Shown piece by piece: positions 12,133 to 23,954 of a stretch of DNA of 64,000 nt. How positions within the stretch are numbered: position 1 is the first letter of the stretch; each line of letters starts with the position of its first letter. The stretch is from a plasmid: sequence record NZ_CP119397.1; one strand, written 5' to 3'. The translations under genes were made by a program, and so were the position numbers. The notes under the pieces are model-generated. The model saw nothing but the letters and a program-made list of their open reading frames with translations. It searched no databases and was not told where the DNA came from.

Positions 12133-12417
12133 TCAGAGGCCATCCACAATGGTGATCATCGCGTCAGCGACGCCGGCGCGCCTGGCCCGTGCCTGCTGGT
12201 ACGCCTCTGAGTGGTAACAGGCCAGCGCCGTGGGGTAATCGTCAAATTCAATCACCACATGTTTGATGAAGGCTGCCCCTTCCAACGTTTCAGCCTGGCC
12301 GCCCCGCGCCAAGAAGCGGGCGTTAAACTGGCGGAATGCGTCGGGGGCCAGCGCCATATAGTGCTGATACTGTACGGGATCATGAACGGTGACGTGGGCA
12401 ATCCAGTAGGCGGGCAT
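12133..12417 (-). CDS. DUF1330-family protein
   Basis: 94 aa, MPAYWIAHVTVHDPVQYQHYMALAPDAF... matches DUF1330 (dimeric alpha+beta barrel-like) proteins. Confidence 0.65.
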   Translation of the reverse strand: MPAYWIAHVTVHDPVQYQHYMALAPDAFRQFNARFLARGGQAETLEGAAFIKHVVIEFDDYPTALACYHSEAYQQARARRAGVADAMITIVDGL

Positions 12418-12421
12418 CGGG

Positions 12422-13099
12422 TTACTCCTGCTCAGTTAAAATGCGTTTCGCCAGTTCAGCGGCTTCCGTGAGGTGGGCCAGCACCTCGTTGCGCGCCAGA
12501 TCGGCGTCATTTTTATCAATCGCATCATAGATGCGTGACATGCGCTCAAAGCCCGCGACACGGCGCTCATGGCTTTTCAGCGTCAGGGCGCGCAGGCGGC
12601 TGATGCGGCTGTTAAGCCGCTGCACAATTTCCCAGGCGATGGTGTGGTTGGCAACCTGGAAAATGGTTTCGTAAAACGCCTGGGAGGCCTCAACCCGCCG
12701 GATGTCATCATGCTCGTTGGAGGCCTCGGCGATCTGCATCAGTTTCTGGTGCAGCACCTGTTTGTCATGCGGTTGCGCCAGCCGGGCGCAGTCGTGCGCC
12801 GCCTCCTGCTCCAGCAGCATCCGGATGGCGTAAATCTGCTCCGCCACTTGCCAGGTCAGCACCGCCACTATCGGCCCCTTTTTCGGCAGGTTCTCAATCA
12901 GCCCTTCGGCTTCCAGGTAGCGGATAACCTCCCGGACCACGCTGCGGCTGACGCCCAGCTCTTCACTGAGTGTCCGCTCCACCAGCCGGTCACCCGCTTC
13001 AAAATACCCGGCGATAATCGCCTGGCGCACTTTGGTCAGCGCCAGTTCACGCAGGGTTTGCGGGGTATTCTCTATTTTTAATGAATGGTTTGGCAGCAT
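12422..13099 (-). CDS. GntR-family (FadR/FCD subfamily) transcriptional regulator
   Basis: wHTH LSEELGVSRSVVREVIRYLEAEGLI + C-terminal FCD-type all-helical domain; divergent to catabolic operon. Confidence 0.85.
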   Translation of the reverse strand: MLPNHSLKIENTPQTLRELALTKVRQAIIAGYFEAGDRLVERTLSEELGVSRSVVREVIRYLEAEGLIENLPKKGPIVAVLTWQVAEQIYAIRMLLEQEAAHDCARLAQPHDKQVLHQKLMQIAEASNEHDDIRRVEASQAFYETIFQVANHTIAWEIVQRLNSRISRLRALTLKSHERRVAGFERMSRIYDAIDKNDADLARNEVLAHLTEAAELAKRILTEQE

Positions 13100-13128
13100 G
13101 GGCTTCTCTTTGATGAGCGGAATTTTTA

Positions 13129-13138
13129 ACGTATACGT
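13129..13138. promoter_or_regulatory. perfect palindrome ACGTATACGT in 5' region of gntR gene (candidate autoregulatory operator)
   Basis: 10-bp perfect palindrome 30 bp upstream of regulator start; GT-N-AC core typical of GntR/FadR operators. Confidence 0.4.
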
Positions 13139-13554
13139 AACAATAAGGGGCGGGCGTCCGCCTCGTCCTGACCGCCTGCCGGTTAACTATTAGCACTGTT
13201 TCGCCTGCTTTGGCAATCCTGGTATGCCATATGCCATCCGATTAACTGCATGGCGTCTTTACCGGCACCTGACGGGAAACTGCCGGAAATCCGCGTCAGT
13301 TCACAAATCTGTTATTTCGCCGGAATGCGCAAATTATCACCACCCATCCAGCCCGGCCATGTAAAATATCCAGCTGATAAATATCGACAATTATTTTACA
13401 CCCTGCCTTTTTTTTCACCTTTTTCTTCCTGCACCCGTCAGCCCGGTAAACCGGTATTTCTGAAACAGCGTTGGCGGGTTAAACCCGCCTGCTGCCGGGG
13501 TTTGCCTGCTGTAGATGCCGCCCTTTTCAGAAAATTTTAAGTATTCCGTATGAT

Positions 13555-13564
13555 GGTATACCAA
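13555..13564. promoter_or_regulatory. perfect palindrome TGGTATACCA overlapping -35 (TTGACA) of the 13.65 kb operon promoter: candidate GntR/FadR-type operator
   Basis: TGGT-N2-ACCA consensus of FadR-subfamily operators, immediately 5' of TTGACA (13567-13572). Confidence 0.5.
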
Positions 13565-13649
13565 CTTTTGACATACAACGAAGCCCGGTGCTATACCTCG
13601 TCTCACGCCACATAGAGTTAACATTTCATTTACTTTTGGAGGTTGTTCC

Positions 13650-14252
13650 ATGCATCCGAATATCCGTAAGACACTGGTTTCCACTGAGACGATCTATTCC
13701 GACGGCGGCAAGGCAGCCGGCCAGCCGCTGGTGATGATCGCGGCCGCAGCCGTGGTGAAAAACCCGTGGGCCGGGCAAGGCTTCGTTGAAGATCTGGCGC
13801 CAAAAATCCGCGAGATGGCCCCGGTGCTGGGCGAGCTGCTGACGGCGTTGATCATCAAAGAGGCCGGGTCGGGCGAGCAGGTTCAGGCGTTCGGCAAAAG
13901 TGCCGTGGTGGGGCTGGACGGCGAACTGGAACACGCCTCCGCGCTTATCCACACCCTGCACTTCGGCAACCATTACCGCTCGGCAGTCGAGGGGAAAAGT
14001 TACCTGGCGTTCAACAACACCCGCGGCCCGGCCAACTCCCCGATCCTGATCCCGATGATGGGCAAAAACGACGAGGGCAGCCGCGAACACTACCTGACGT
14101 TCCAGTTCAACATCAATGATGCCCCTTTCAGTGACGAAATCGTCATTGCGCTGGGCGCTGCGCTGGGCGGCAGGCCACACCACCGTATCGGCAACCGTTA
14201 CCTTGACCTGAAAGAGTTAGGCCATGATCCGAAAAACCCAGCAGCTGTCTGA
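13650..14252 (+). CDS. 'amino acid synthesis' family protein (PF06684-like)
   Basis: 200 aa; overall resemblance to AA_synth family proteins; first gene of operon. Confidence 0.6.
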   Translation: MHPNIRKTLVSTETIYSDGGKAAGQPLVMIAAAAVVKNPWAGQGFVEDLAPKIREMAPVLGELLTALIIKEAGSGEQVQAFGKSAVVGLDGELEHASALIHTLHFGNHYRSAVEGKSYLAFNNTRGPANSPILIPMMGKNDEGSREHYLTFQFNINDAPFSDEIVIALGAALGGRPHHRIGNRYLDLKELGHDPKNPAAV

Positions 14253-15069
14253 GATAAACCTCCGGGTCAGCTATCTGGAAGCGGGCCAGGGCGCGCCGCT
14301 GGTGCTGATCCACGGGGTCGGGATGAACGCGGAATCCTGGTATCCGCAGATGGCAGCGCTGAGCCGCCACTTCCGGGTGCTGGCGGTGGACATGCCGGGG
14401 CATGGTGAAAGCGAGGGCTTCCGCCACCCCGCCGCCCTGAACGAGTACGTCGCGTGGCTGGCCGCGTTCCTGCGTACCCAGCCGGAGGCGCGTTTTGCCG
14501 TGGCGGGTCACTCGATGGGCGCGCTGATCACTGCCGGGCTGGCGATCGACTGCCCGGCGCTGGTGAGCCACGCGGTAGTGATGAGCGGGGTGTTCCGCCG
14601 CAGTGACGCGGCCCGCGCCGCCGTCGTGCAGCGCGCCGCTGAACTCGCCGCCGGGCAGGGAGAGATCGACTCGCCGCTGGCGCGCTGGTTCAGTGACGCA
14701 CCCGGCGAACAACCACTGCGCCGCCAGGTGGGCGACTGGCTGCACCGGGTTGACCGGCAAGGCTACGCCTGCGCCTATCAGGCGTTTGCCGGGGGCGACC
14801 AGCTCTACGCCGACCGCTGGCAGGCGATCCAGTGCCCGGTACTGGTGCTGACCGGCGAACAGGATGCCAACTCCAGCCCGGCAATGGCCCGGCAGATGGC
14901 CCAGGCCGCCCCCCACGGGCGGGCGGTGATTATTGAAAACGCCCGGCACATGGTCACCCTGACAGACGCAGAGCGGGTCAACGCGGAACTTCTGGCGTTT
15001 CTCCGCCCTGCCCCTGCACCGGTTGCCCGGCAGACCACACGAGAAGGAGTGACAGATGGACGCAGATAA
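14224..15069 (+). CDS. alpha/beta-fold hydrolase
   Basis: HGVGMN oxyanion region, GHSMGA nucleophile elbow (Ser in G-x-S-x-G). Confidence 0.8.
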   Translation: MIRKTQQLSEINLRVSYLEAGQGAPLVLIHGVGMNAESWYPQMAALSRHFRVLAVDMPGHGESEGFRHPAALNEYVAWLAAFLRTQPEARFAVAGHSMGALITAGLAIDCPALVSHAVVMSGVFRRSDAARAAVVQRAAELAAGQGEIDSPLARWFSDAPGEQPLRRQVGDWLHRVDRQGYACAYQAFAGGDQLYADRWQAIQCPVLVLTGEQDANSSPAMARQMAQAAPHGRAVIIENARHMVTLTDAERVNAELLAFLRPAPAPVARQTTREGVTDGRR

Positions 15070-15985
15070 ACGCAGACAATTACGTGACGCTTTCGGCGCT
15101 TTTATGACCGGCGTCACCGTCGTGACCACCACGGGTGATCACGGCCAACCGCTTGGCTTTACCGCCAATTCCTTCTCCTCGGTGTCGCTGGAGCCGCCGT
15201 TGCTGCTGGTCAGCATTGACAAGCGTTCGGCCAATTTTGCCCAGTTTACCGGCTGCGGCCACTTCGCCATCAATGTGCTCGCCGAGCAGCAGAAAGAGAC
15301 CTCAAACATTTTTGCGCAGAAAATTGAGGATCGCTTCGCGCTGATTGACTGGCACCCGGCTGCCTCCGGTGCGCCGCTGATTGACGGCAGCTCCGCCTGG
15401 TTTGACTGCCGCCTGCATCAGGTGGTGGATGCCGGTGACCACGCCATTTTGATCGGGGAAGTCGGGGCGTTCGGCTCCAGCGGCACCGCCGGGCTGGGTT
15501 ACTACCGCGGTGCCTATTTCACCCCGTTCCATAATGCCGAATCCCTGATCACCAACCCGGAAGTGGTGGTCAGCGCGCTGATTGAATCCAACGGCCGGGC
15601 GGTGATGGTCAGACAGCAGGATGGCGGCTACGCCCTGCCCGCCCGCACCGTCGGCGGCCAGGGCGTCAGTGACACCCTGGCCGCACTGACCCGCGATCTG
15701 TCTCTGAACGCCAGCCCCGGCTTTGTCTATTCGATTTACGACGAGCGCCCCAAAAACCGCCAGCACATCGTGTTCCTGTGCGCCCTGCCGACCGATGCCG
15801 CAGAGGCACAGCCGCCGCTGCACCAGGCCGAGTGGTATCCCCTGAGCAATCTGGCCGGTTTGCCGATTGCCGACTCCGCCCTGAAATCGCTGATGAACCG
15901 TTTTGTCAGGGAACATGCGGTGGGTAATTACGCCATCTATTACGGCGATGAACAACGCGGCAGCCTTAAACATTTCGCCGGCTGA
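15056..15985 (+). CDS. flavin reductase-like domain protein with ~150-aa C-terminal extension
   Basis: N-terminal 160 aa = flavin reductase (HpaC/RutF-like: FMTGVTVVTT..., GDHAILIGEV); C-terminal half of unknown fold. Confidence 0.75.
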   Translation: MDADKRRQLRDAFGAFMTGVTVVTTTGDHGQPLGFTANSFSSVSLEPPLLLVSIDKRSANFAQFTGCGHFAINVLAEQQKETSNIFAQKIEDRFALIDWHPAASGAPLIDGSSAWFDCRLHQVVDAGDHAILIGEVGAFGSSGTAGLGYYRGAYFTPFHNAESLITNPEVVVSALIESNGRAVMVRQQDGGYALPARTVGGQGVSDTLAALTRDLSLNASPGFVYSIYDERPKNRQHIVFLCALPTDAAEAQPPLHQAEWYPLSNLAGLPIADSALKSLMNRFVREHAVGNYAIYYGDEQRGSLKHFAG

Positions 15986-16004
15986 ACGCCGTGAGGACGC
16001 AACC

Positions 16005-17042
16005 ATGAAACTCTCTTTATTCGTTCATATGGAAAGAATTTCCCCCGATGAGCCGCAGGAAACGCTCTACAACGAGATGATGACGCTGTGTGAAATCGCG
16101 GATCGCGGCGGTATGCACGCTATCTGGACGGGTGAGCACCACGGCATGAATTTCACCATCGCCCCCAACCCGTTTATCAACCTGGTGGACATCGCCCACC
16201 GGACATCCAGGGTTCGCCTGGGCACCGGCACCGTGGTCGCCCCGTTCAACCACCCGATCCGGCTGGCCGGGGAAGCGGCGATGACTGACCTTATCACCGG
16301 CGGGCGGCTGGAGCTGGGCATCGCACGCGGTGCGTACAGCTTCGAATATGAACGCCTGATGCCGGGGCTGACGGCCTGGGAGGCGGGCCAGCGGATGCGT
16401 GAGCTGATCCCGGCGGTGCAGAAGCTGTGGCAGGGCGATTACGCCCACCAGGGGGAGTTCTGGTCATTCCCGTCGACCACGTCCGCGCCGCAACCGGCCA
16501 AAGACGCCGCACCGCCGATCTGGGTGGCAGCGCGTGACCCGAACAGCCATGAGTTTGCCGTGAAAAATAACTGCAACGTACAGGTGACGCCGCTGCATCA
16601 GGGCGAGGAGGAGATTGTCCGGCTGGTGACCTGCTTCAAAGAGGCCTGCCGGGCATTCCCACCGCCTGCCCCGCTGAAAATCATGCTGCTGCAACATGGC
16701 TATGTGGCGGAGGATGAGGCCGACGCGCAGCAGGCCGCCACCGCATTTAACCGCTTCTACAACTATTTCGGTGCCTGGTTCAAGAATGAGCGCCCGGTCA
16801 CGCAGGGGCTGATCCAGCCGCTGACCGACGAGGAGATTGCGGCCAACCGTTACTACTCCGCCGAGGCCATGCGCACCAACCTCGCCATCGGCACCGCCAA
16901 TGACCTGATCGCCCGCCTGAAACATTATGAGGCGCTGGGCTATGACGAGTTCGCGTTGTGGATCGACAGCGGGATGCCGTTTGCCCGCAAAAAAGCGTCA
17001 CTGGAGCGTTTTATTCACGGCGTGCTGCCCGAATTTCACTGA
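16005..17042 (+). CDS. LLM-class (luciferase-like) flavin-dependent monooxygenase
   Basis: 345 aa; TIM-barrel LLM hallmarks (MKLSLFVHM..., WTGEHHG, GRLELGIARG). Confidence 0.85.
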   Translation: MKLSLFVHMERISPDEPQETLYNEMMTLCEIADRGGMHAIWTGEHHGMNFTIAPNPFINLVDIAHRTSRVRLGTGTVVAPFNHPIRLAGEAAMTDLITGGRLELGIARGAYSFEYERLMPGLTAWEAGQRMRELIPAVQKLWQGDYAHQGEFWSFPSTTSAPQPAKDAAPPIWVAARDPNSHEFAVKNNCNVQVTPLHQGEEEIVRLVTCFKEACRAFPPPAPLKIMLLQHGYVAEDEADAQQAATAFNRFYNYFGAWFKNERPVTQGLIQPLTDEEIAANRYYSAEAMRTNLAIGTANDLIARLKHYEALGYDEFALWIDSGMPFARKKASLERFIHGVLPEFH

Positions 17043-17051
17043 GGAACCCTG

Positions 17052-18518
17052 ATGGAATCGTTCAAACTCTATATCGACGGCCGCTTTGAGGCGGGCAGCG
17101 CCTGTTTCACCTCGCTGAACCCGGCCACGGAGCAGCCCTGGGCGGAGATTGCCGAAGCGCAGGCAGAGGACGTCAACCGGGCGGTGGCCGCCGCGCACCG
17201 CGCTTTCCATGACGAACGCTGGCGCGGCCTCACCGCCGGTGCGCGCGGCAAATTGCTGCTGCGGCTGGCGGATCTGCTGGAGCAGAACGCCGGGGAACTG
17301 GCGCGGCTGGAGACGCTCGACACCGGCAAAATCATCCGGGAAACCCGCGCCCAGGTAGCGTATGTCGCGGAGTATTACCGCTATTACGCCGGGCTGGCGG
17401 ACAAGATGGAGGGCCGCACCCTCAGCATCGACAAACCGGACATGGAAACCTGGGTCACGCGTGAACCCGTGGGCGTGGTCGCGGCGATCATCCCCTGGAA
17501 CAGCCAGCTGTTTTTATCGGCCGTGAAAATCGGCCCGGCGATCGCCGCCGGCTGCACGCTGGTGGTCAAGGCCGCGGAAACCGCCCCGGCCCCGCTGCTG
17601 GCGTTTGCGCGCCTGATCGACGAAGCCGGGTTCCCGCCCGGCGTCTGTAACATCATTACCGGCTTCGCCGCGACGTGCGGCACGGTGCTGACCACCCACC
17701 CGCTGGTGGACCACATCGCCTTTACCGGCGGCCCGGAAACGGCAAAAAGCATCATCCGCAACAGTGCGGAAAACCTGGCGCGCACCTCGCTGGAGCTGGG
17801 CGGCAAATCACCGTTTATCGTGTTTGAGGATGCTGACCTGGAGAGCGCCGCCAATGCGCAGGTCGCGGCGATCTTCTCCGCCTCGGGCCAGAGCTGCGTG
17901 GCCGGCTCCCGGCTGCTGGTGGCAGAAAGCATCAAAGACGCGTTTCTCGAGGCGCTGACGCAGAAGGTGCGCGGCATTGTGATTGGCTGCCCGCAGCAGC
18001 CGGAAACCCAGTTCGGCCCGCTCTGCACCCCCCAGCAAAAAACGCGCATCCACCAGCGGGTCACGCAGTCACTGGAACAGGGCGCGCGGCTGGTCACCGG
18101 CCATTACGACCTGGATCGCCCCGGTTATTACTACCCGCCAACCATCCTCGACTGCTCAGCCCAGCCGCAGGCCGTGTGCGTGACGGAGGAACTGTTCGGC
18201 CCGGTACTCTCGGTGCTGACCTTCCGTGATGAGGCCGAAGCGGTGCGCCTGGCGAATGACACCGGGTATGGGCTGGCGGCCGGGGTGTTTACCCAGAACC
18301 TGACCCGCGCCCACCGCGTGACGCGCCGTCTGCGCACCGGCGTGGTGTGGCTCAACACCTACCGGGCGGTCTCCCCGCTGGCCCCCTTTGGCGGCTACGG
18401 CAAATCGGGCTTTGGCCGTGAAGGCGGCATGGACGCGGCGCTGGAGTACACCACCACCAAAACCGTCTGGTTACGCACCAGTGATGCGCCGATAGATGAC
18501 CCGTTTGTGATGCGCTGA
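17052..18518 (+). CDS. NAD(P)-dependent aldehyde dehydrogenase
   Basis: 488 aa; catalytic Cys/Glu motifs (ELGGKSP, GQSCVAGSRLLV). Confidence 0.9.
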   Translation: MESFKLYIDGRFEAGSACFTSLNPATEQPWAEIAEAQAEDVNRAVAAAHRAFHDERWRGLTAGARGKLLLRLADLLEQNAGELARLETLDTGKIIRETRAQVAYVAEYYRYYAGLADKMEGRTLSIDKPDMETWVTREPVGVVAAIIPWNSQLFLSAVKIGPAIAAGCTLVVKAAETAPAPLLAFARLIDEAGFPPGVCNIITGFAATCGTVLTTHPLVDHIAFTGGPETAKSIIRNSAENLARTSLELGGKSPFIVFEDADLESAANAQVAAIFSASGQSCVAGSRLLVAESIKDAFLEALTQKVRGIVIGCPQQPETQFGPLCTPQQKTRIHQRVTQSLEQGARLVTGHYDLDRPGYYYPPTILDCSAQPQAVCVTEELFGPVLSVLTFRDEAEAVRLANDTGYGLAAGVFTQNLTRAHRVTRRLRTGVVWLNTYRAVSPLAPFGGYGKSGFGREGGMDAALEYTTTKTVWLRTSDAPIDDPFVMR

Positions 18519-18711
18519 CCCAGTGCGCAGGGCGGCGCGCCCCCGCCGCCCGCGTTATGCGTTTCAGGACGACACCGCCCGCCTGTTTCTGACGTCATCA
18601 CCTGTTAAGGCAACCCTCGCCGGTTGTCAGGATGGCTGTGGGCTTTTTTCAGGGAATACCGCCTTACACCCGCTGTTTACACGCTGAAATCCTGATTTCC
18701 CGGAGGTTAGA

Positions 18712-20109
18712 ATGAGTGCCCAGCCCGACCAGAAACGGTTAATTGAAAACAAGTCTGTTGATTACGTCCCGGCGTCAGAGCGCCACGGCCGCTCACGCAG
18801 CCTCTTTACGCTCTGGTTCTGCACCAACATTGCACCGCTGGCGGTGGTCACCGGGGCGATGGCCAGCCAGACGTTCCACCTCAGCATTGCCTCGGCGCTG
18901 ACGGCGATTATCGCCGGGCACCTGTTCGGCGGGATTTTCCTGGCCCTGACGTCGGCACAGGGGCCGCAGGTGGGCATTCCGCAAATGGTACAGAGCCGGG
19001 CGCAGTTCGGCCGTTACGGTTCGCTGCTGGTGATTATCTTCGCCACCGTGATTTACCTCGGCTTCTTTATCTCCAATATCTCCCTGTCCGGGCGGGTGAT
19101 TAACAATGTCATCCCGGCGTTGCCGCTCCCGGCCGCCACGCTCACCGGGGCAGTGGTCGCGACGCTGATTGGCGTGGTGGGGTACCACTTTATCCACCAT
19201 ATCAACAAGGTAGGTGCCTGGGTGATGGGCGCGGCGCTGCTGGGCGGGCTTTTGCTGATGCTGACCCAACCGCTGCCGGCCGATTTCTGGCAGCGCGGCA
19301 GCGTCACCCCCGGCGGCTGGTTTGCCACCTTCTGCATCGGCGCGGTGTGGCAAATCAGCTTTTCGCCCTACACCTCTGACTATTCACGCTACCTGCCGGC
19401 CAGCGCCGGCATTGCGCGGCCGTTCCTCTGCACCTATCTGGGGGCGTGCTGCGGCACTATCCTGGCGTTTGTGTTCGGGCTGGTGGCGGTTAACCTGGTG
19501 CCCGGCAGCGATGCAATGGCCTCCGTCCGGCAGGCGACCGGCTGGCTCGGGCCGATGCTGATGGGGCTGTTTTTGGTCAACATCATCTGCCATAACTCCA
19601 TGAACCTGTATGGCGCGGTACTCTCGCTGATTACCGCCGTCCAGACGTTCCGCCCGCACTGGACGCCGGATGCGCGTGTCCGGGTGCTGTTCTCCGCGCT
19701 GGTGCTGGCAGGCTCGGTGCTGACGGCCCTGGCGGCTTCCGCGCACTTTGTCACCTTCTTCCTGAACCTGATCCTGGCGTTGATCGCCGTGCTTATCCCG
19801 TGGAGCGTGATTAACCTGATCGATTTCTACCTGATCAATAAACAGCGCTATGACATCCCCTCGATTTTCAGCGCGGACGGCGGGCGTTACGGGCGGGTCA
19901 ACACCCGCGCCTTGCTGGTCTATTTCGGTGGGATTGTGGTGCAGGTGCCGTTTGTGGAGAACGCCTTTTTCACCGGCCCCTATGCCAACCTGATCCCAGG
20001 GGTGGATATCTCCTGGATTATCAGCCTGGTGGTGACCAGCATCGCCTACCCGCTGTTCCACAGCCGCCATGATGTGCGGGTGCCCAGCGGCCGGGCAAGC
20101 AAAGCCTGA
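18712..20109 (+). CDS. NCS1-family (cytosine/purine/uracil/hydantoin-type) permease
   Basis: 465 aa, 12 TM; NCS1 N-terminal signature region. Confidence 0.85.
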   Translation: MSAQPDQKRLIENKSVDYVPASERHGRSRSLFTLWFCTNIAPLAVVTGAMASQTFHLSIASALTAIIAGHLFGGIFLALTSAQGPQVGIPQMVQSRAQFGRYGSLLVIIFATVIYLGFFISNISLSGRVINNVIPALPLPAATLTGAVVATLIGVVGYHFIHHINKVGAWVMGAALLGGLLLMLTQPLPADFWQRGSVTPGGWFATFCIGAVWQISFSPYTSDYSRYLPASAGIARPFLCTYLGACCGTILAFVFGLVAVNLVPGSDAMASVRQATGWLGPMLMGLFLVNIICHNSMNLYGAVLSLITAVQTFRPHWTPDARVRVLFSALVLAGSVLTALAASAHFVTFFLNLILALIAVLIPWSVINLIDFYLINKQRYDIPSIFSADGGRYGRVNTRALLVYFGGIVVQVPFVENAFFTGPYANLIPGVDISWIISLVVTSIAYPLFHSRHDVRVPSGRASKA

Positions 20110-20141
20110 GAGCCGCCCCGCCCGGCTTTCCGCCCCGGCCA

Positions 20142-20170
20142 TGCCCCTGCCCTTTGGCGGGGCTTTTTTC
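20142..20170 (+). terminator. rho-independent terminator after permease gene
   Basis: GCCCCTGCC-N-GGCGGGGC hairpin followed by TTTTTT. Confidence 0.7.
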
Positions 20171-20322
20171 AGCCCGCCGGCTTCTTTTTCCCGCTGGCTA
20201 AAGTTTCGGCAAAAACCCACCGATAACTTACCAGCAGGACGTTTATGTACAGGATGTCGCCTATGTGATAGCGCAACGCCGGGAGTGCCATAATGGCCGG
20301 AAAAGTACGACAGAAACACCCC

Positions 20323-22245
20323 ATGAGTACCCGCACACAGATGCTGCTCACGGGCGCGTTAACCATCACCCTTGGGTTTGTGGTCACCATTGGTGTGCTG
20401 AGCTGGCAGTCAGGCCGCGAGCAAAAATTGCTGGCCGGGCAGTACCTGCAACAGATCGCCCAGTCCAGCGCCCTGCAAATCCAGCAGGAGCTGAGCTATG
20501 CCAGGGATGTGGCGCACAACCTGGGCCAGAGCCTGATCGCCCTGCCCGCCGCCGGGATAAAAGAGCGCGCCGCCGCCGATAAGCTGACGGAATACGCCCT
20601 GCGGGATAACCCTGATTACCTGTCGATGTCCGTGATTTTCGAACAGGATGCCTTCGACGGGCGCGACGCCGAGTTCGCCGCCCTGCCCGGCCAGGCACCG
20701 AACGGCCGCTACGCCTGGTTTGTCGACAAAAACCAGGCGGGCCAGTACGCGATGCACCCGCTGCTCTCCTATGCCACGCCCGGCCAGGGCGACTACTATC
20801 TGGTGCCGCAAAAGAGCCGCAAAGATACCCTCACCGAACCCTACACCTACGCCTATAACGGTGTGCCGACGCTGCTGACTTCCGTTTCGTCGCCGATCGT
20901 CAGTGACGGCAAACTCTGGGCGGTGGTCGCCTCCGACATCTCGCTGGCGTCGTTGCAGAAAAAAGTCGATCAGATAAAACCCTGGGAAGGCAGCGGCTAC
21001 GCCATGCTGCTTTCGCATGGCGGCAAAGTGGTCTCCCACCCGGATAAAACGTTAGCGGGTAAAGTCTGGCCCGGCCGGGCCGATAACTTCACCGCGGACA
21101 TCGTGCAACAACATGACGCGCGGCTGGACGAAGAGGTGATGGTGACCTGGCAACCGGTCACCATCGGCAACAGCGACCAGCCGTGGTACCTCGGCGTGGT
21201 GGTGCCGGTCAGCCAGGTGATGGCGGCCGCCAACCGGCAGTTAACCAATGCCGTGATCCTGATGGTGGTGAGCATCCTGCTGGTGAGCGCGCTGCTTGGG
21301 GTAATTTTCAGCCGCAAAGTGCTGCGGCCGATCGGCGGCGAGCCGTTGCAGGCTGCCACCATTGCGCTGGCGGTTGCGGAAGGCAAGCTGGATAACGTCA
21401 TCCCGGTCAGTGCCGGTGACCGCAGCAGCCTGTTTTTTGCCCTGCACACCATGCAGGCGCAGTTGCGCGGTATTGTCGGCCAGCTGAAAGAGGCCAGCGA
21501 CTCGGTGCGCCAGGGCGCAGGCGAGATTGCCGGCGGCAACCTGGATCTCGCCTCCCGCACGGAACAGCAGGCCGCCGCGCTGGAGGAGACCGCCGCCAGC
21601 ATGGAGCAGATCACTGCCACCGTGAAACATAACGCCGCGAACACGCACCAGGCCACGGTATTGACGGAGAACGCCACCCGCATCGCCGGGCGCGGCGAGC
21701 TGCTGGTGAACCAGGTGGTGGAGACGATGACGCAGATTGATGACAGCGCCCGGAAAATCGGCGACATCACGGCGATCATCAACAGCATCGCGTTCCAGAC
21801 CAATATCCTGGCGCTGAACGCTGCGGTGGAGGCCGCACGGGCCGGAGAACAGGGGCGCGGCTTCGCCGTGGTGGCCTCTGAAGTGCGCAACCTGGCGCAA
21901 CGCAGCGCCACCGCCGCCACCGAGATCGCCGCGCTGATTGAAGAGTCCGGCCGCCGCGTCGGCAGCGGGGTGCAACTGGTGCACGATACCGGCAACACCA
22001 TGCAGGAGATGACCCAGGCCGTCACGTCCATGCAGAGCATTATCAACGAGATCGCTACCGCCTCGGACGAACAGGCCAAGGGCATCAGCCAGGTGACGCT
22101 GGCGGTCAACGAGATGGACGGCACCACCCAGCAAAACGCCGCCCTGGTGCAGGAGATGTCTGCCGCAGCCAGCTCGCTGGAGGCGCAGGCGCAACAGCTC
22201 GCCCAGACAGTAGAGCAGTTCCGGTTGTCGGCCCAGCCTGCGTAA
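20323..22245 (+). CDS. methyl-accepting chemotaxis protein with periplasmic Cache-like sensor, HAMP and MA signalling domain
   Basis: TM1, ~270-aa periplasmic domain, TM2, HAMP, highly conserved MCP signalling hairpin ([37 protein letters not shown]). Confidence 0.85.
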
Positions 22246-22415: not shown

Positions 22416-23954
22416 ATGTTGGCCCTATTCCGTAACCGGTCCCCTGAACGCATCATGCGCGCGTGTTTGATGATTATCAGCGCGGCGGTGCTGTTCACCG
22501 GCACCTGGTCGCTCTGGCACTCCTGGCACGGCACCGTGCAGGATGCCGAGAAGGACGCGAAAAACCAGTCGCTGTCGCTCTCGCGGCAGGCGCAGGATAC
22601 CTTTTTACAGGTGGAACTCACCCTGGAGGAGCTGGCGCGCAACGCAGACGCGATGTTTGCCGCGCCGTCCCATTTTGCCGGGCCGGGCGGGCTGCTGGCC
22701 ATGCAGAAGAGCAAACTGCCGCAACTGAATGGGCTGTTCGTCTATGACGCGCAGGGGCGCTGGGTCACCACGACCGCGAAACACGTGCCGCCGCGGGCCA
22801 ATAATGCTGACCGGGAATATTTTATCTGGCACCGTGAGCATAACGACGCGCTGATCCACGTCGGGCATGTGATCCGCAGCCGCTCCAGCGGGGAGCTGAT
22901 CATCCCGGTATCCCTGCGCCTGAATGATGCGCAGGGGGCGTTCCGCGGCGTGGTGCTGGGCACGGTGAGGGTCGATTTTTTCCGCCACTTTTATGGCTGG
23001 TATGAGCAGGGGCCGAACGATCTGCTCGGGCTGCTGCACGCTGACGGCACCATCCTTTATATGCGCCCCTTCCCGGACAGCGTGATTAACCGCAGCCTGG
23101 CGCACAGCCCGCTGTTTACCCGCCTGCTGAAAAGTGCGCTCACCGGCACCCGCACCTGGAAAAACCGGGTGGACGGCGTAACGCGCCTGACGGGCTATGC
23201 CCGGCTGGAGCGCTACCCACTGGTGGCGGTGGCCGGTTATGACCGTAATGCCTTACAGCGCACCTGGTTCAGCAATAATGCGGTGATCATCATCCTGAAC
23301 GGCCTGCTGCTGTTGCTGGTGATCGTGCTGGGCCTGCTGGGGTTGAGGCAGTTCAACACCACCTTGCGTAAACAGCGTGAGCTGCTGGAAGTGCGTGACG
23401 AGCTGACGCGGGTCAACCATACCTTGCAGGATCTGGCGCTGGTGGACGGCCTGACCGGCATCGGCAACCGCCGCCAGTTCGATTTTTATCTGGAGCAGTG
23501 TCTGCTGCGTGCGAAAGGGTCCGGGTTGCCGGTGTCGCTGGTGATGCTGGACATCGACTTTTTCAAAAACTACAACGATGCCTTTGGCCATGTTGCCGGT
23601 GACGAATGCCTGAGGCAGGTCGCGGAGATCCTCGACCACCTGCCGCGCCGCGGTGCCGACCGGGTAACCCGCTACGGCGGCGAAGAGTTCGCGCTGATCC
23701 TGCCGGGCACCGGCGCCGATGAAGCCAGACAGGTGGCGAAACGCGCACTGGCGGCCCTGCGCCGGGCGGCCCTGCCGCACAGCGCCAGCCCGTTGCCGGA
23801 AAAAATCGTCACCCTGAGCGGCGGCGTCAGCACCGCCCACCCCGGCGGCAGCGCCGATGAGCTGAAACGGGCAGCCGATGCCGCGCTCTATCAGGCCAAA
23901 CGCGCCGGCCGTAACCGGATTATGGGTGCCGGGGTGGTGAAGGAGGGGGAATGA
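22416..23954 (+). CDS. sensor diguanylate cyclase (periplasmic sensor domain + GGDEF)
   Basis: N-terminal TM, ~270-aa periplasmic domain, TM, GGDEF domain with intact RYGGEEF active site. Confidence 0.85.
   Translation: MLALFRNRSPERIMRACLMIISAAVLFTGTWSLWHSWHGTVQDAEKDAKNQSLSLSRQAQDTFLQVELTLEELARNADAMFAAPSHFAGPGGLLAMQKSKLPQLNGLFVYDAQGRWVTTTAKHVPPRANNADREYFIWHREHNDALIHVGHVIRSRSSGELIIPVSLRLNDAQGAFRGVVLGTVRVDFFRHFYGWYEQGPNDLLGLLHADGTILYMRPFPDSVINRSLAHSPLFTRLLKSALTGTRTWKNRVDGVTRLTGYARLERYPLVAVAGYDRNALQRTWFSNNAVIIILNGLLLLLVIVLGLLGLRQFNTTLRKQRELLEVRDELTRVNHTLQDLALVDGLTGIGNRRQFDFYLEQCLLRAKGSGLPVSLVMLDIDFFKNYNDAFGHVAGDECLRQVAEILDHLPRRGADRVTRYGGEEFALILPGTGADEARQVAKRALAALRRAALPHSASPLPEKIVTLSGGVSTAHPGGSADELKRAADAALYQAKRAGRNRIMGAGVVKEGE

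Follow-up and report, generated by a model that had tools for sequence, protein, structure and literature searches.

Which compound is degraded by the products of an eight-gene cluster of a Chimaeribacter arupi-like enterobacterium, and do these genes define a new catabolic route? In the Chimaeribacter genome the cluster bears generic gene names only, and it looked uncharacterised because no NCBIfam equivalog model reached its cutoff for any of the eight genes. A preliminary description of the 64-kb stretch analysed here (the window) viewed it as a possible, previously undescribed pathway for an N-heterocycle. Gene order and protein similarity indicate that it is very probably a trigonelline (N-methylnicotinate) catabolic cluster, tgnR / tgnF-D-A-B-C-P. 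The eight open reading frames had been correctly delineated and assigned to families, and all seem intact:

12133..12417, minus strand: DUF1330 gene (Pfam PF07045, E=1.6e-32; 60% to CAG69313, the adjoining A. baylyi gene)
12422..13099, minus strand: tgnR-like regulator of the FadR subfamily (GntR HTH and FCD domains, Pfam), divergent from the operon
13650..14252, plus strand: tgnF orthologue, PF06684 "amino acid synthesis" (AA_synth) family, first gene of the operon (Pfam E=2.7e-64; 74% to ADP1 CAG69311)
14224..15069, plus strand: tgnD orthologue, alpha/beta hydrolase, putative (E)-2-((N-methylformamido)methylene)succinate hydrolase, the name borne by ADP1 CAG69310 (48%, 264 aa)
15056..15985, plus strand: tgnA orthologue, NADH:flavin reductase with a predicted Nudix-fold C-terminal domain (49%, 307 aa, to ADP1 TgnA CAG69309)
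16005..17042, plus strand: tgnB orthologue, luciferase-like flavin-dependent monooxygenase (LLM), putative oxygenase component of trigonelline monooxygenase (68%, 344 aa, to ADP1 TgnB CAG69308/ACIAD2543)
17052..18518, plus strand: tgnC orthologue, ALDH family, putative (Z)-2-((N-methylformamido)methylene)-5-hydroxybutyrolactone dehydrogenase, the name borne by ADP1 CAG69307 (69%, 488 aa, full length)
18712..20109, plus strand: NCS1-family permease (tgnP), presumed trigonelline importer (61% to ADP1 CAG69306, at the same position)
20145..20172, plus strand: intrinsic-terminator-like hairpin (7-bp stem, 6 GC pairs) followed by the T-run CTTTTTTCAG, at the operon end

The tgn cluster of Acinetobacter baylyi ADP1 is said to have been worked out by Perchat et al. 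in 2018, and reportedly comprises TgnA to TgnF together with a permease and a regulator. TgnB is its LLM (UniProt Q6F9F6), and TgnF is a PF06684 protein described as stimulating or assisting TgnE. The best hits of all eight proteins in A. baylyi DSM 14961, where the compared sequences are identical to the ADP1 entries CAG69303-69313, are collinear, match in orientation and extend over the full length at 48-74% identity. The layout is the same in ADP1, with the DUF1330 and GntR genes on one side and the PF06684, hydrolase, two-domain reductase, LLM, ALDH and NCS1 genes on the other. NCBI and UniRef names for the ADP1 entries include the oxygenase and reductase components of trigonelline monooxygenase, MFMB dehydrogenase, MFMS hydrolase and succinate-semialdehyde dehydrogenase, and JGI applies the names tgnB and tgnA to proteins respectively 70% and 50% identical to the LLM and reductase of the cluster. 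An LLM this close to TgnB of ADP1, within eight genes collinear with tgn, does not fit a previously undescribed route; moreover, a "TG operon" had already been reported in Serratia marcescens, and use of trigonelline as a carbon source is a classical Serratia biotyping trait. The expectation of an N-heterocyclic substrate agrees with trigonelline, as indicated by tgn orthology, and nicotinate derivatives were among the candidates listed at the time. The sequence comparisons themselves establish orthology, synteny, intact catalytic motifs and a conserved operator; the reaction chemistry is drawn from the literature and from database names.

Under this identification, trigonelline would be taken up by the NCS1 permease, as orthology and gene position suggest. 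TgnA would reduce flavin with NADH and deliver it to the luciferase-like oxygenase TgnB, which would directly open the pyridinium ring to yield the lactol MFMB. The two-component ring-opening logic recognised earlier, a flavin reductase feeding an LLM oxygenase, is borne out by the orthology of the pair with TgnA and TgnB. The longest open reading frame of tgnB starts at 15903, and all homologues begin at the ATG at 16005 (MKLSLF..., 345 aa); A. baylyi TgnB has 15 additional C-terminal residues. MFMB would then be oxidised to MFMS by the ALDH-family TgnC. This enzyme had been taken for a substitute of RutE at a semialdehyde step; it is instead an orthologue of TgnC, a dehydrogenase presumed to act on the lactol ring-opening product, with the catalytic ELGGK and GQSCVAG motifs and only 34% identity to TgnE, versus 69% to TgnC of ADP1. 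TgnD, whose GHSMG nucleophile motif is also found in its ADP1 counterpart, would convert MFMS to succinate semialdehyde, methylamine, formate and CO2, and succinate semialdehyde would be converted to succinate by a dehydrogenase presumably encoded elsewhere. The 29-nt overlap between tgnF and tgnD is kept in ADP1.

The cluster reductase has a Flavin_Reduct domain (residues 1-157) followed by about 150 extra residues (~158-309). This C-terminal extension, singled out as novel in the preliminary description, is real but present throughout TgnA, and the structure of an orthologue has been solved (PDB 3rh7, from pSym), which matches the cluster reductase over its full length, C-terminal domain included (E=1.3e-77). 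According to its predicted model, which matches Nudix hydrolases with a TM of up to 0.73, the extension is a Nudix-fold domain, from which the Nudix box is absent. The C1 reductase of p-hydroxyphenylacetate 3-hydroxylase from Acinetobacter baumannii (PDB 5zc2) is likewise a two-domain flavin reductase of about 310 aa. Its N-terminal domain matches TgnA (NCBIfam, 166.6 bits over residues 7-156, and PDB hits), but the match ends at residue 157 and its C-terminal domain differs from that of TgnA.

Between the two divergent transcription units lie the following elements:

13100..13649, no strand: divergent control region, 550 bp, in which two short blocks alone are conserved among Enterobacterales (five-genus alignment)
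13187..13196, minus strand: conserved block CTATTAGCAC, near-invariant in the five-genus alignment (one substitution in one of five)
13554..13563, no strand: putative TgnR box, the perfect palindrome TGGTATACCA, invariant in the five aligned Enterobacterales genera
13568..13598, plus strand: candidate operon promoter, TTGACA, 17-nt spacer and CTATAC/TATACC, with TTTGACAT and ATG.TATA conserved in five genera

The control region spans 133 bp in A. baylyi ADP1, as against 550 bp here, and an Rfam search of 13100..13649 gave no match. TGGTATACCA is invariant across the five genera while the remaining intergenic sequence is not conserved. It occurs exactly upstream of a tgnF-like gene at 60 of 82 related loci from three proteobacterial classes (70 of 82 with at most one mismatch), and of 75 exact copies counted across 1.6 Mb of such loci, 59 fall in the 330 bp before tgnF; this conservation is far beyond chance. 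In ADP1, TTGTATACCA precedes tgnF and a perfect TGGTATACCA copy precedes tgnE; the operator core T[GT]GTATACCA before the operon is common to ADP1 and the cluster. TgnR, which shares 56% identity (219 aa) with its A. baylyi counterpart at the same position, would act as a FadR-type GntR repressor on TGGTATACCA at the operon promoter, as had been predicted and as the conservation of the box before the operon in related loci supports, with release presumably triggered by trigonelline or an intermediate. Of the operator as originally proposed, the conserved palindrome stands but not its overlap with the -35 element: it abuts a perfect TTGACA (13568-13573), lying 4 nt upstream. An imperfect second copy of the box, TGCTATACCT at 13589-13598, covers the presumed -10. 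A consensus promoter scanner picked another site, TTCAGA-17-TATGAT at 13526-13554. On the regulator side, CTATTAGCAC, with TGcTAATAG on the minus strand, is a candidate extended -10 for tgnR. The second palindrome noted earlier, ACGTATACGT at 13129-13138, is present but conserved in none of the four other Enterobacterales aligned, and a perfect 10-bp palindrome is expected by chance within 550 bp about half the time. The DUF1330 gene follows tgnR after 4 nt, probably on a shared transcript, and is a conserved companion of the cluster: of 75 loci having enough flank, 60 carry it beside the operon.

The window contains no tgnE, porin, CMD gene or methylamine-handling genes. By contrast, the ADP1 cluster has tgnE, the porin and the CMD gene downstream, and lies alongside sarcosine-oxidase-like and N-methylglutamate-pathway genes. 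In Acinetobacter and Tatumella the cluster is bordered by methylamine and N-methylglutamate genes, consistent with methylamine as a product. TgnF, the described helper of TgnE, is present despite the lack of tgnE within 64 kb. The missing tgnE, together with a genomic context that differs genus by genus and the occurrence of some copies on plasmids, could suggest a horizontally acquired module, cryptic or decaying, that no longer supports growth, with the downstream succinate-semialdehyde dehydrogenase and methylamine disposal missing. We consider this very unlikely, given eight reading frames that are full length relative to ADP1, intact catalytic motifs, strongly conserved operator and promoter blocks, and the gabD-type succinate-semialdehyde dehydrogenases that are common elsewhere in enterobacterial genomes (E. 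coli gabD matched).

Some 80 alpha-, beta- and gammaproteobacterial species keep the F-D-A-B-C order. The NCS1 permease is present in 39 of 43 Beta- and Gammaproteobacterial loci, with replacement in Alphaproteobacteria, and the identical eight-gene module in Serratia, Pantoea, Tatumella and Salmonella. The LLM phylogeny, suggested earlier as a check on novelty, groups the cluster LLM with characterised TgnB, nested inside the TgnB radiation (NJ tree). Enterobacterales TgnB forms its own clade, the most divergent of the canonical ones, at 64-72% identity to the rest; the proteins of Acinetobacter, Burkholderia and alphaproteobacteria share 74-84%. A divergent paralogous operon in Caballeronia is barely more distant (54-63% to canonical members), which leaves a thin margin between "same substrate" and "related substrate". 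Combined with the lack of tgnE and methylamine genes nearby, these distances could mean that the Enterobacterales clade has shifted its tgn-type machinery to another N-methylpyridinium betaine or pyridine carboxylate. Such a shift is unlikely in view of the complete eight-gene synteny, the identity of the operator sequence, which implies the same regulator specificity, and the conservation of permease and regulator relative to ADP1. Furthermore, Serratia strains are known trigonelline users, and the presence of the operon varies among strains as the trait does.

The Rut pathway (rutABCDEFG of E. coli) resembles tgn in that an LLM-type monooxygenase, supplied by a flavin reductase, opens an N-heterocycle that has not first been hydroxylated, and in that an alpha/beta hydrolase takes part in a later step. 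This superficially Rut-like composition, weak sub-threshold matches to RutF (103 bits, cutoff 254.75) and RutD (66 bits, cutoff 238.5) and an NCS1-family transporter would favour the earlier idea of an undescribed Rut-analogous pathway, for substrates such as pyrimidines, hydantoins or barbiturate. Its probability now appears negligible: each gene finds a closer orthologue, in collinear order, in tgn, a characterised cluster; equivalents of RutA, RutB, RutC, RutE and RutG are all absent; and the grouping of the LLM with a characterised enzyme from a known operon refutes the reading. RutA does not figure among the top LLM matches, in line with the earlier view that the LLM does not look like RutA, and with RutF and RutD models far under cutoff the cluster is not a member of this pathway. 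Rut carbon ends in 3-hydroxypropionate, whereas tgn carbon would end in succinate, from a pyridinium betaine.

Closer to the trigonelline assignment, the trigonelline catabolism (trc) region of Sinorhizobium/Rhizobium pSym includes SMa0793 (PDB 3rh7). On pSymA, TgnA, TgnB and TgnC homologues lie side by side, next to nodulation genes, and may correspond to the genetically defined trc locus; the LLM is carried by 203 Rhizobium and Sinorhizobium plasmids. The S. meliloti copy differs by ABC transporter genes in place of NCS1, a NIPSNAP gene after the ALDH gene and a TgnA with lower identity to that of the cluster (~45%). Finally, the homABCDER operon catabolises homarine (N-methylpicolinate), an isomeric N-methylpyridine carboxylate (Ferrer-Gonzalez et al., 2026). 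It yields N-methylglutamate, its HomA (~700 nt, FAD-binding) and HomB (~1,700 nt) do not correspond to a Flavin_Reduct/LLM pair, and regulator and transporter differ from those of tgn (Ferrer-Gonzalez et al., 2026). In both systems, ring opening would precede demethylation, and an aldehyde dehydrogenase-like enzyme is found in each.

The eight genes at 12133-20109 correspond, one for one, to the tgn cluster of Acinetobacter baylyi ADP1, which encodes the degradation of trigonelline (N-methylnicotinate). All eight ORFs listed in the preliminary description were found by ORF and Pfam analysis, with the families claimed for them. Compared by BLASTP with the proteins of A. baylyi DSM 14961, the products gave best matches that are collinear and in the same orientation, and the DSM 14961 proteins are identical to CAG69303-69313 of ADP1 by exact-sequence look-up.

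Genes of the cluster at 12133-20109, in order, with identity to A. baylyi (BLASTP against DSM 14961) or to the ADP1 protein named
12133-12417: DUF1330 protein; 60% to A. baylyi
Divergent gene: GntR regulator with FCD domain (TgnR); 56% to A. baylyi
13650-14252: PF06684 "AA_synth" protein (TgnF); 74% to A. baylyi and to CAG69311
Next gene: alpha/beta hydrolase (TgnD); 48% over 264 residues to CAG69310, GHSMG common to both
Next gene: Flavin_Reduct protein (reductase, TgnA); 49% over 307 residues to CAG69309, covering residues 1-306 of 309
From ATG 16005: LLM monooxygenase (TgnB); 68% over 344/345 residues to CAG69308 (ACIAD2543)
Next gene: aldehyde dehydrogenase, ALDH (TgnC); 69% over 488 residues to CAG69307
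Last gene: NCS1 permease; 61% to A. baylyi

The ADP1 cluster was reached by way of the NCS1 permease, a less conserved protein whose search returned Acinetobacter matches at 61% identity; the contig of one such match carries the same eight-gene layout, and a scan of one genome per species with the Acinetobacter LLM led to A. baylyi DSM 14961, whose proteins were then identified by exact sequence. The LLM search itself listed no Acinetobacter protein among its best 120 matches. The LLM and permease of the window are 99-100% identical to Chimaeribacter arupi proteins. The cluster looks uncharacterised because NCBIfam equivalog models stayed below cutoff for each of the eight genes.

The five enzyme genes are tightly spaced, with overlaps of 29 and 14 nt followed by gaps of 19 and 9 nt. 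The LLM was taken to start at ATG 16005, giving 345 aa as in every homologue; TTG 15903 was rejected as its start since all homologues begin at the position matching ATG 16005. The permease follows the ALDH after 193 nt, a gap in which no conserved element was seen, and is itself followed by a good terminator hairpin at 20145. A weak Rfam match to Hrs1 (20102-20170, minus strand; 26.4 bits against a gathering threshold of 56.4, E=0.09) lies over this hairpin and most probably does not represent an sRNA. The catalytic motifs GHSMG of the hydrolase and ELGGK and GQSCVAG of the ALDH are intact. Directly downstream of the cluster stand genes for a dCache-type methyl-accepting chemotaxis protein (20293-22245) and a dCache-GGDEF diguanylate cyclase (22416-23954). 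Neither is conserved beside the module in the Serratia, Pantoea, Tatumella and Salmonella loci, so both were left out of the cluster, and a tie to trigonelline sensing is speculative.

The function of the ADP1 counterparts is carried by their NCBI and UniRef names: trigonelline monooxygenase oxygenase component for CAG69308, trigonelline monooxygenase reductase component for CAG69309, (E)-2-((N-methylformamido)methylene)succinate hydrolase for CAG69310, (Z)-2-((N-methylformamido)methylene)-5-hydroxybutyrolactone dehydrogenase for CAG69307 and succinate-semialdehyde dehydrogenase for CAG69304 (TgnE). JGI likewise names a protein 70% identical to the window LLM [quoted passage not shown], and TgnB (UniProt Q6F9F6) is described as a luciferase-like enzyme. 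In a neighbour-joining tree rooted on a paralogue, the window LLM is nested inside the canonical TgnB set. The expectation of an N-heterocycle substrate is thus borne out by collinearity with a trigonelline cluster at 48-74% identity, and that of a two-component ring opening by a reductase and an LLM that are orthologues of the two trigonelline monooxygenase components. The ALDH had been read as a semialdehyde step in place of RutE. It is 69% identical to TgnC (CAG69307) vs 34% to TgnE (CAG69304), and these identities make it an orthologue of TgnC, the lactol dehydrogenase, and not of TgnE.

Most probably, trigonelline would be imported by the NCS1 permease and its ring opened oxygenolytically by TgnA and TgnB to the lactol MFMB, which TgnC would oxidize to MFMS. 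Hydrolysis of MFMS by TgnD would then release succinate semialdehyde, methylamine, formate and CO2, reportedly the TgnD products in the 2018 trigonelline abstract, and a dehydrogenase encoded elsewhere would convert succinate semialdehyde to succinate. Both intermediates, MFMB and MFMS, are encoded in the database enzyme names of the ADP1 proteins. A tblastn search of the 64-kb window with ADP1 TgnE recovered only the TgnC-like ALDH, at 34%, and no tgnE. This gene lies within 10 kb of the cluster in 35/84 related loci and in 0/4 of the other Enterobacterales, and was treated as accessory because it varies across the family. No sarcosine-oxidase-like or N-methylglutamate-pathway protein was found by tblastn of the window either. 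Since the window carries neither these genes nor tgnE, trigonelline may serve this organism mainly as a carbon source. In an Acinetobacter locus (L001, 1-3523 and 14697-21404) and a Tatumella locus (L085, 1-4540), the genes flanking the cluster encode sarcosine-oxidase-like subunits, glutamine-synthetase-like and glutamate-synthase-like proteins and an ammonium transporter, none of the last three being present in the window. These flanking genes fit disposal of the released methylamine through the N-methylglutamate pathway.

Expression of the cluster is predicted to depend on TgnR. The regulator has the FadR-subfamily domain layout (Pfam GntR, E=2.5e-14; FCD, E=3.1e-19), and the operator consensus of this subfamily is a palindrome of the T.GT..AC.A type. 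Such a palindrome, TGGTATACCA, is present at 13554-13563. Its exact sequence occurs upstream of the PF06684 gene in 60/82 loci, drawn from three classes of proteobacteria, and the count rises to 70/82 if one mismatch is allowed, which upholds the proposal of a GntR operator at the operon. Moreover, related loci totalling 1.6 Mb contain 75 exact copies, 59 of which fall within the 1.7% of DNA immediately preceding the PF06684 gene, and in ADP1 TTGTATACCA precedes tgnF. Alignment of the 450-550 bp intergenic regions of five enterobacterial genera revealed the conserved arrangement GTAT[GT]ATGGTATACCA...TTTGACAT...(17 nt)...ATG.TATAC and another conserved block, CTATTAGCAC, near the regulator, with almost nothing else conserved. 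Taken together, TGGTATACCA is a strong phylogenetic footprint of a predicted TgnR operator of FadR-subfamily type. In Acinetobacter, four further exact copies stand some 100 bp ahead of tgnE (L013, A. baylyi, 15534; L003, L004 and L012, about 15530), so that the separately transcribed tgnE of this genus seems to be a member of the TgnR regulon as well.

As for the position of this box relative to the promoter, the palindrome itself is real and conserved; the overlap with the operon -35 that had been described is not, as the box abuts the TTGACA hexamer. An imperfect copy of the box, TGCTATACCT, covers the presumed -10. A consensus scanner favoured another promoter, whose -10 ends at the TGGTATACCA box, and the operon thus has two candidate promoters. 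The second palindrome of the preliminary description, ACGTATACGT at 13129-13138, was dropped: it is unconserved in every other genus aligned and its occurrence is as expected by chance. A one-mismatch operator copy, TGGTATGCCA, stands at 13220-13229, some 120 nt ahead of the tgnR start. The other genera do not share it, and it may be a species-specific autoregulatory site or due to chance. The tgnR-tgnF intergenic region (13100-13649 here; also L083-L086, from Serratia, Pantoea, Tatumella and Salmonella) spans 450-550 bp in Enterobacterales vs 133 bp in A. baylyi. It contains no convincing ORF, and an Rfam scan of it gave no match.

The companions of the named enzymes deserve separate consideration. 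The DUF1330 gene lies beside the operon in 60/75 loci with sufficient flank, and in Alpha-, Beta- and Gammaproteobacteria alike it is probably transcribed together with tgnR. Among the entries looked up, that of the ADP1 DUF1330 protein bears no Tgn enzyme name, and the protein may be an unrecognised component of the pathway. TgnF, the best conserved protein of the cluster and invariably the product of its first gene, is described as a member of PF06684 and as a stimulator of the succinate-semialdehyde dehydrogenase TgnE. Its conservation where this partner is missing, as in the window and in 49/84 loci, hints at a role beyond helping TgnE.

The third companion is a domain of TgnA. The Pfam Flavin_Reduct domain stops at residue 155 of this 309-aa protein, and the C-terminal extension that follows had been called novel. 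It is in fact shared by ADP1 TgnA and by all full-length homologues among the 120 matches listed (300-331 aa, with roughly 300-315 aa as the general length), and a full-length orthologue, SMa0793 of Sinorhizobium meliloti, has a crystal structure (PDB 3rh7; E=1.3e-77). A model of residues 158-309 (15527-15985; pLDDT 83.6) matched the Nudix hydrolases 3cng, 3id9 and 3o8s in Foldseek with probability 1.00 and TM up to 0.73, and a profile search with the domain gave, after 3rh7, weak matches to Nudix proteins only. Pfam returned no match for the domain, Nudix included, even at E<=10. Nudix hydrolases are recognised by the Nudix fold together with the catalytic Nudix box Gx5Ex7REUxEExGU, and neither this box nor an REx2EE motif is visible in the sequence of the domain. 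The domain is taken to have a Nudix-like fold and is probably not a hydrolase; as guesses at its role one may name NADH binding, nucleotide binding or regulation. DUF1330, TgnF and the TgnA Nudix domain are all missing from the enzymes named for the catalytic steps in the ADP1 database entries and in the accessible text of the citing papers. It is conceivable, though we would rather bet against it, that the published four-step scheme is incomplete, with at least one of DUF1330, TgnF and the box-less Nudix domain acting in the breakdown of the pyridinium ring as an enzyme, chaperone or sensor not recognised so far, and that TGGTATACCA also defines a pan-proteobacterial TgnR regulon.

Nearly all of 84 related loci, from Alpha-, Beta- and Gammaproteobacteria, keep the order PF06684-hydrolase-reductase-LLM-ALDH. 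The NCS1 permease is found in 39/43 Beta- and Gammaproteobacterial loci vs 0/27 alphaproteobacterial ones, and ABC transporter genes replace it in the S. meliloti pSymA copy. The enterobacterial LLMs form a clade of their own, 64-72% identical to the others, whereas those of Acinetobacter, Burkholderia and Alphaproteobacteria share 74-84% with ADP1. An operon of Caballeronia pedi, paralogous to the canonical one, is only slightly more distant (54-63%), so that from sequence a shift of the tgn-type clade of Enterobacterales to a related substrate is conceivable, though unlikely. Against it stand the identical operator, the complete synteny and the trigonelline phenotype known in Serratia. In the C. 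pedi locus (L037) this additional, divergent operon is complete and runs on the opposite strand, its LLM showing the above identity to canonical TgnB, and many Burkholderiaceae (L014-L017, L020, L025, L028 and others) carry extra reductase-hydrolase-GntR triplets by the canonical cluster. The additional operon and the triplets may represent paralogous pathways for related substrates.

The exact eight-gene module recurs, with genomic surroundings that differ from case to case, in Serratia odorifera, Pantoea latae, Tatumella and Salmonella, and large Pantoea and Klebsiella plasmids also carry it (plasmid matches H1-H6). Given unrelated contexts in four genera and these plasmid copies, it appears to be a mobile catabolic module. 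The Salmonella copy (L086) adjoins colicin and toxin-antitoxin genes. At its NCS1 position (12516-14319 of the S. enterica contig) no gene is called, an ORF 75% identical to the window permease being present there; the permease gene may be disrupted or uncalled. Complete E. coli genomes yielded no cluster, only short ALDH-family matches to gabD. The LLM is found on 266 plasmids, mostly symbiotic plasmids of Rhizobium and Sinorhizobium. On pSymA the cluster adjoins noeB, in keeping with the symbiotic region of pSym to which trigonelline catabolism genes have classically been assigned, as cited in the 2025 S. marcescens genome paper.

Plants, coffee, legumes and urine are rich in trigonelline, so that the module marks the capacity to use a betaine commonly supplied by plants or hosts. 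Eight generically named Chimaeribacter genes can now be named as a trigonelline utilisation module, as can their counterparts in Serratia, Pantoea, Tatumella and Salmonella and on Klebsiella plasmids, and the deeply conserved TgnR operator could be used for regulon prediction or biosensors. Trigonelline is also one of the carbon sources of Grimont for biotyping S. marcescens, a species in which the 2025 genome paper reports a strain-variable "TG operon". The module is the likely genetic basis of this strain-variable trait in Serratia biotyping.

At equivalog level the cluster does not match the Rut pyrimidine operon. RutF scored 103 bits against a cutoff of 254.75 and RutD 66.1 against 238.5, and RutA fell outside the 25 best NCBIfam models for the LLM, in agreement with the earlier remark that this protein is not RutA-like. 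Unlike the Rut operon, the eight genes include no RutB (isochorismatase-type amidase), RutC (RidA family), RutE (nitroreductase) or RutG (NCS2) by Pfam, the nearest nitroreductase gene being 4 kb off, beyond unrelated genes. The homABCDER homarine operon was rejected as an alternative, as its gene families differ. Nor is the route previously undescribed, as had been suggested, since the LLM is 68% identical to TgnB and the operon was already noted in S. marcescens. The F-D-A-B-C gene order, followed by the permease and accompanied by a divergent GntR gene, has the order and orientation seen in A. baylyi and in about 80 other species, and the system is the one known since 2018 as the tgn cluster.
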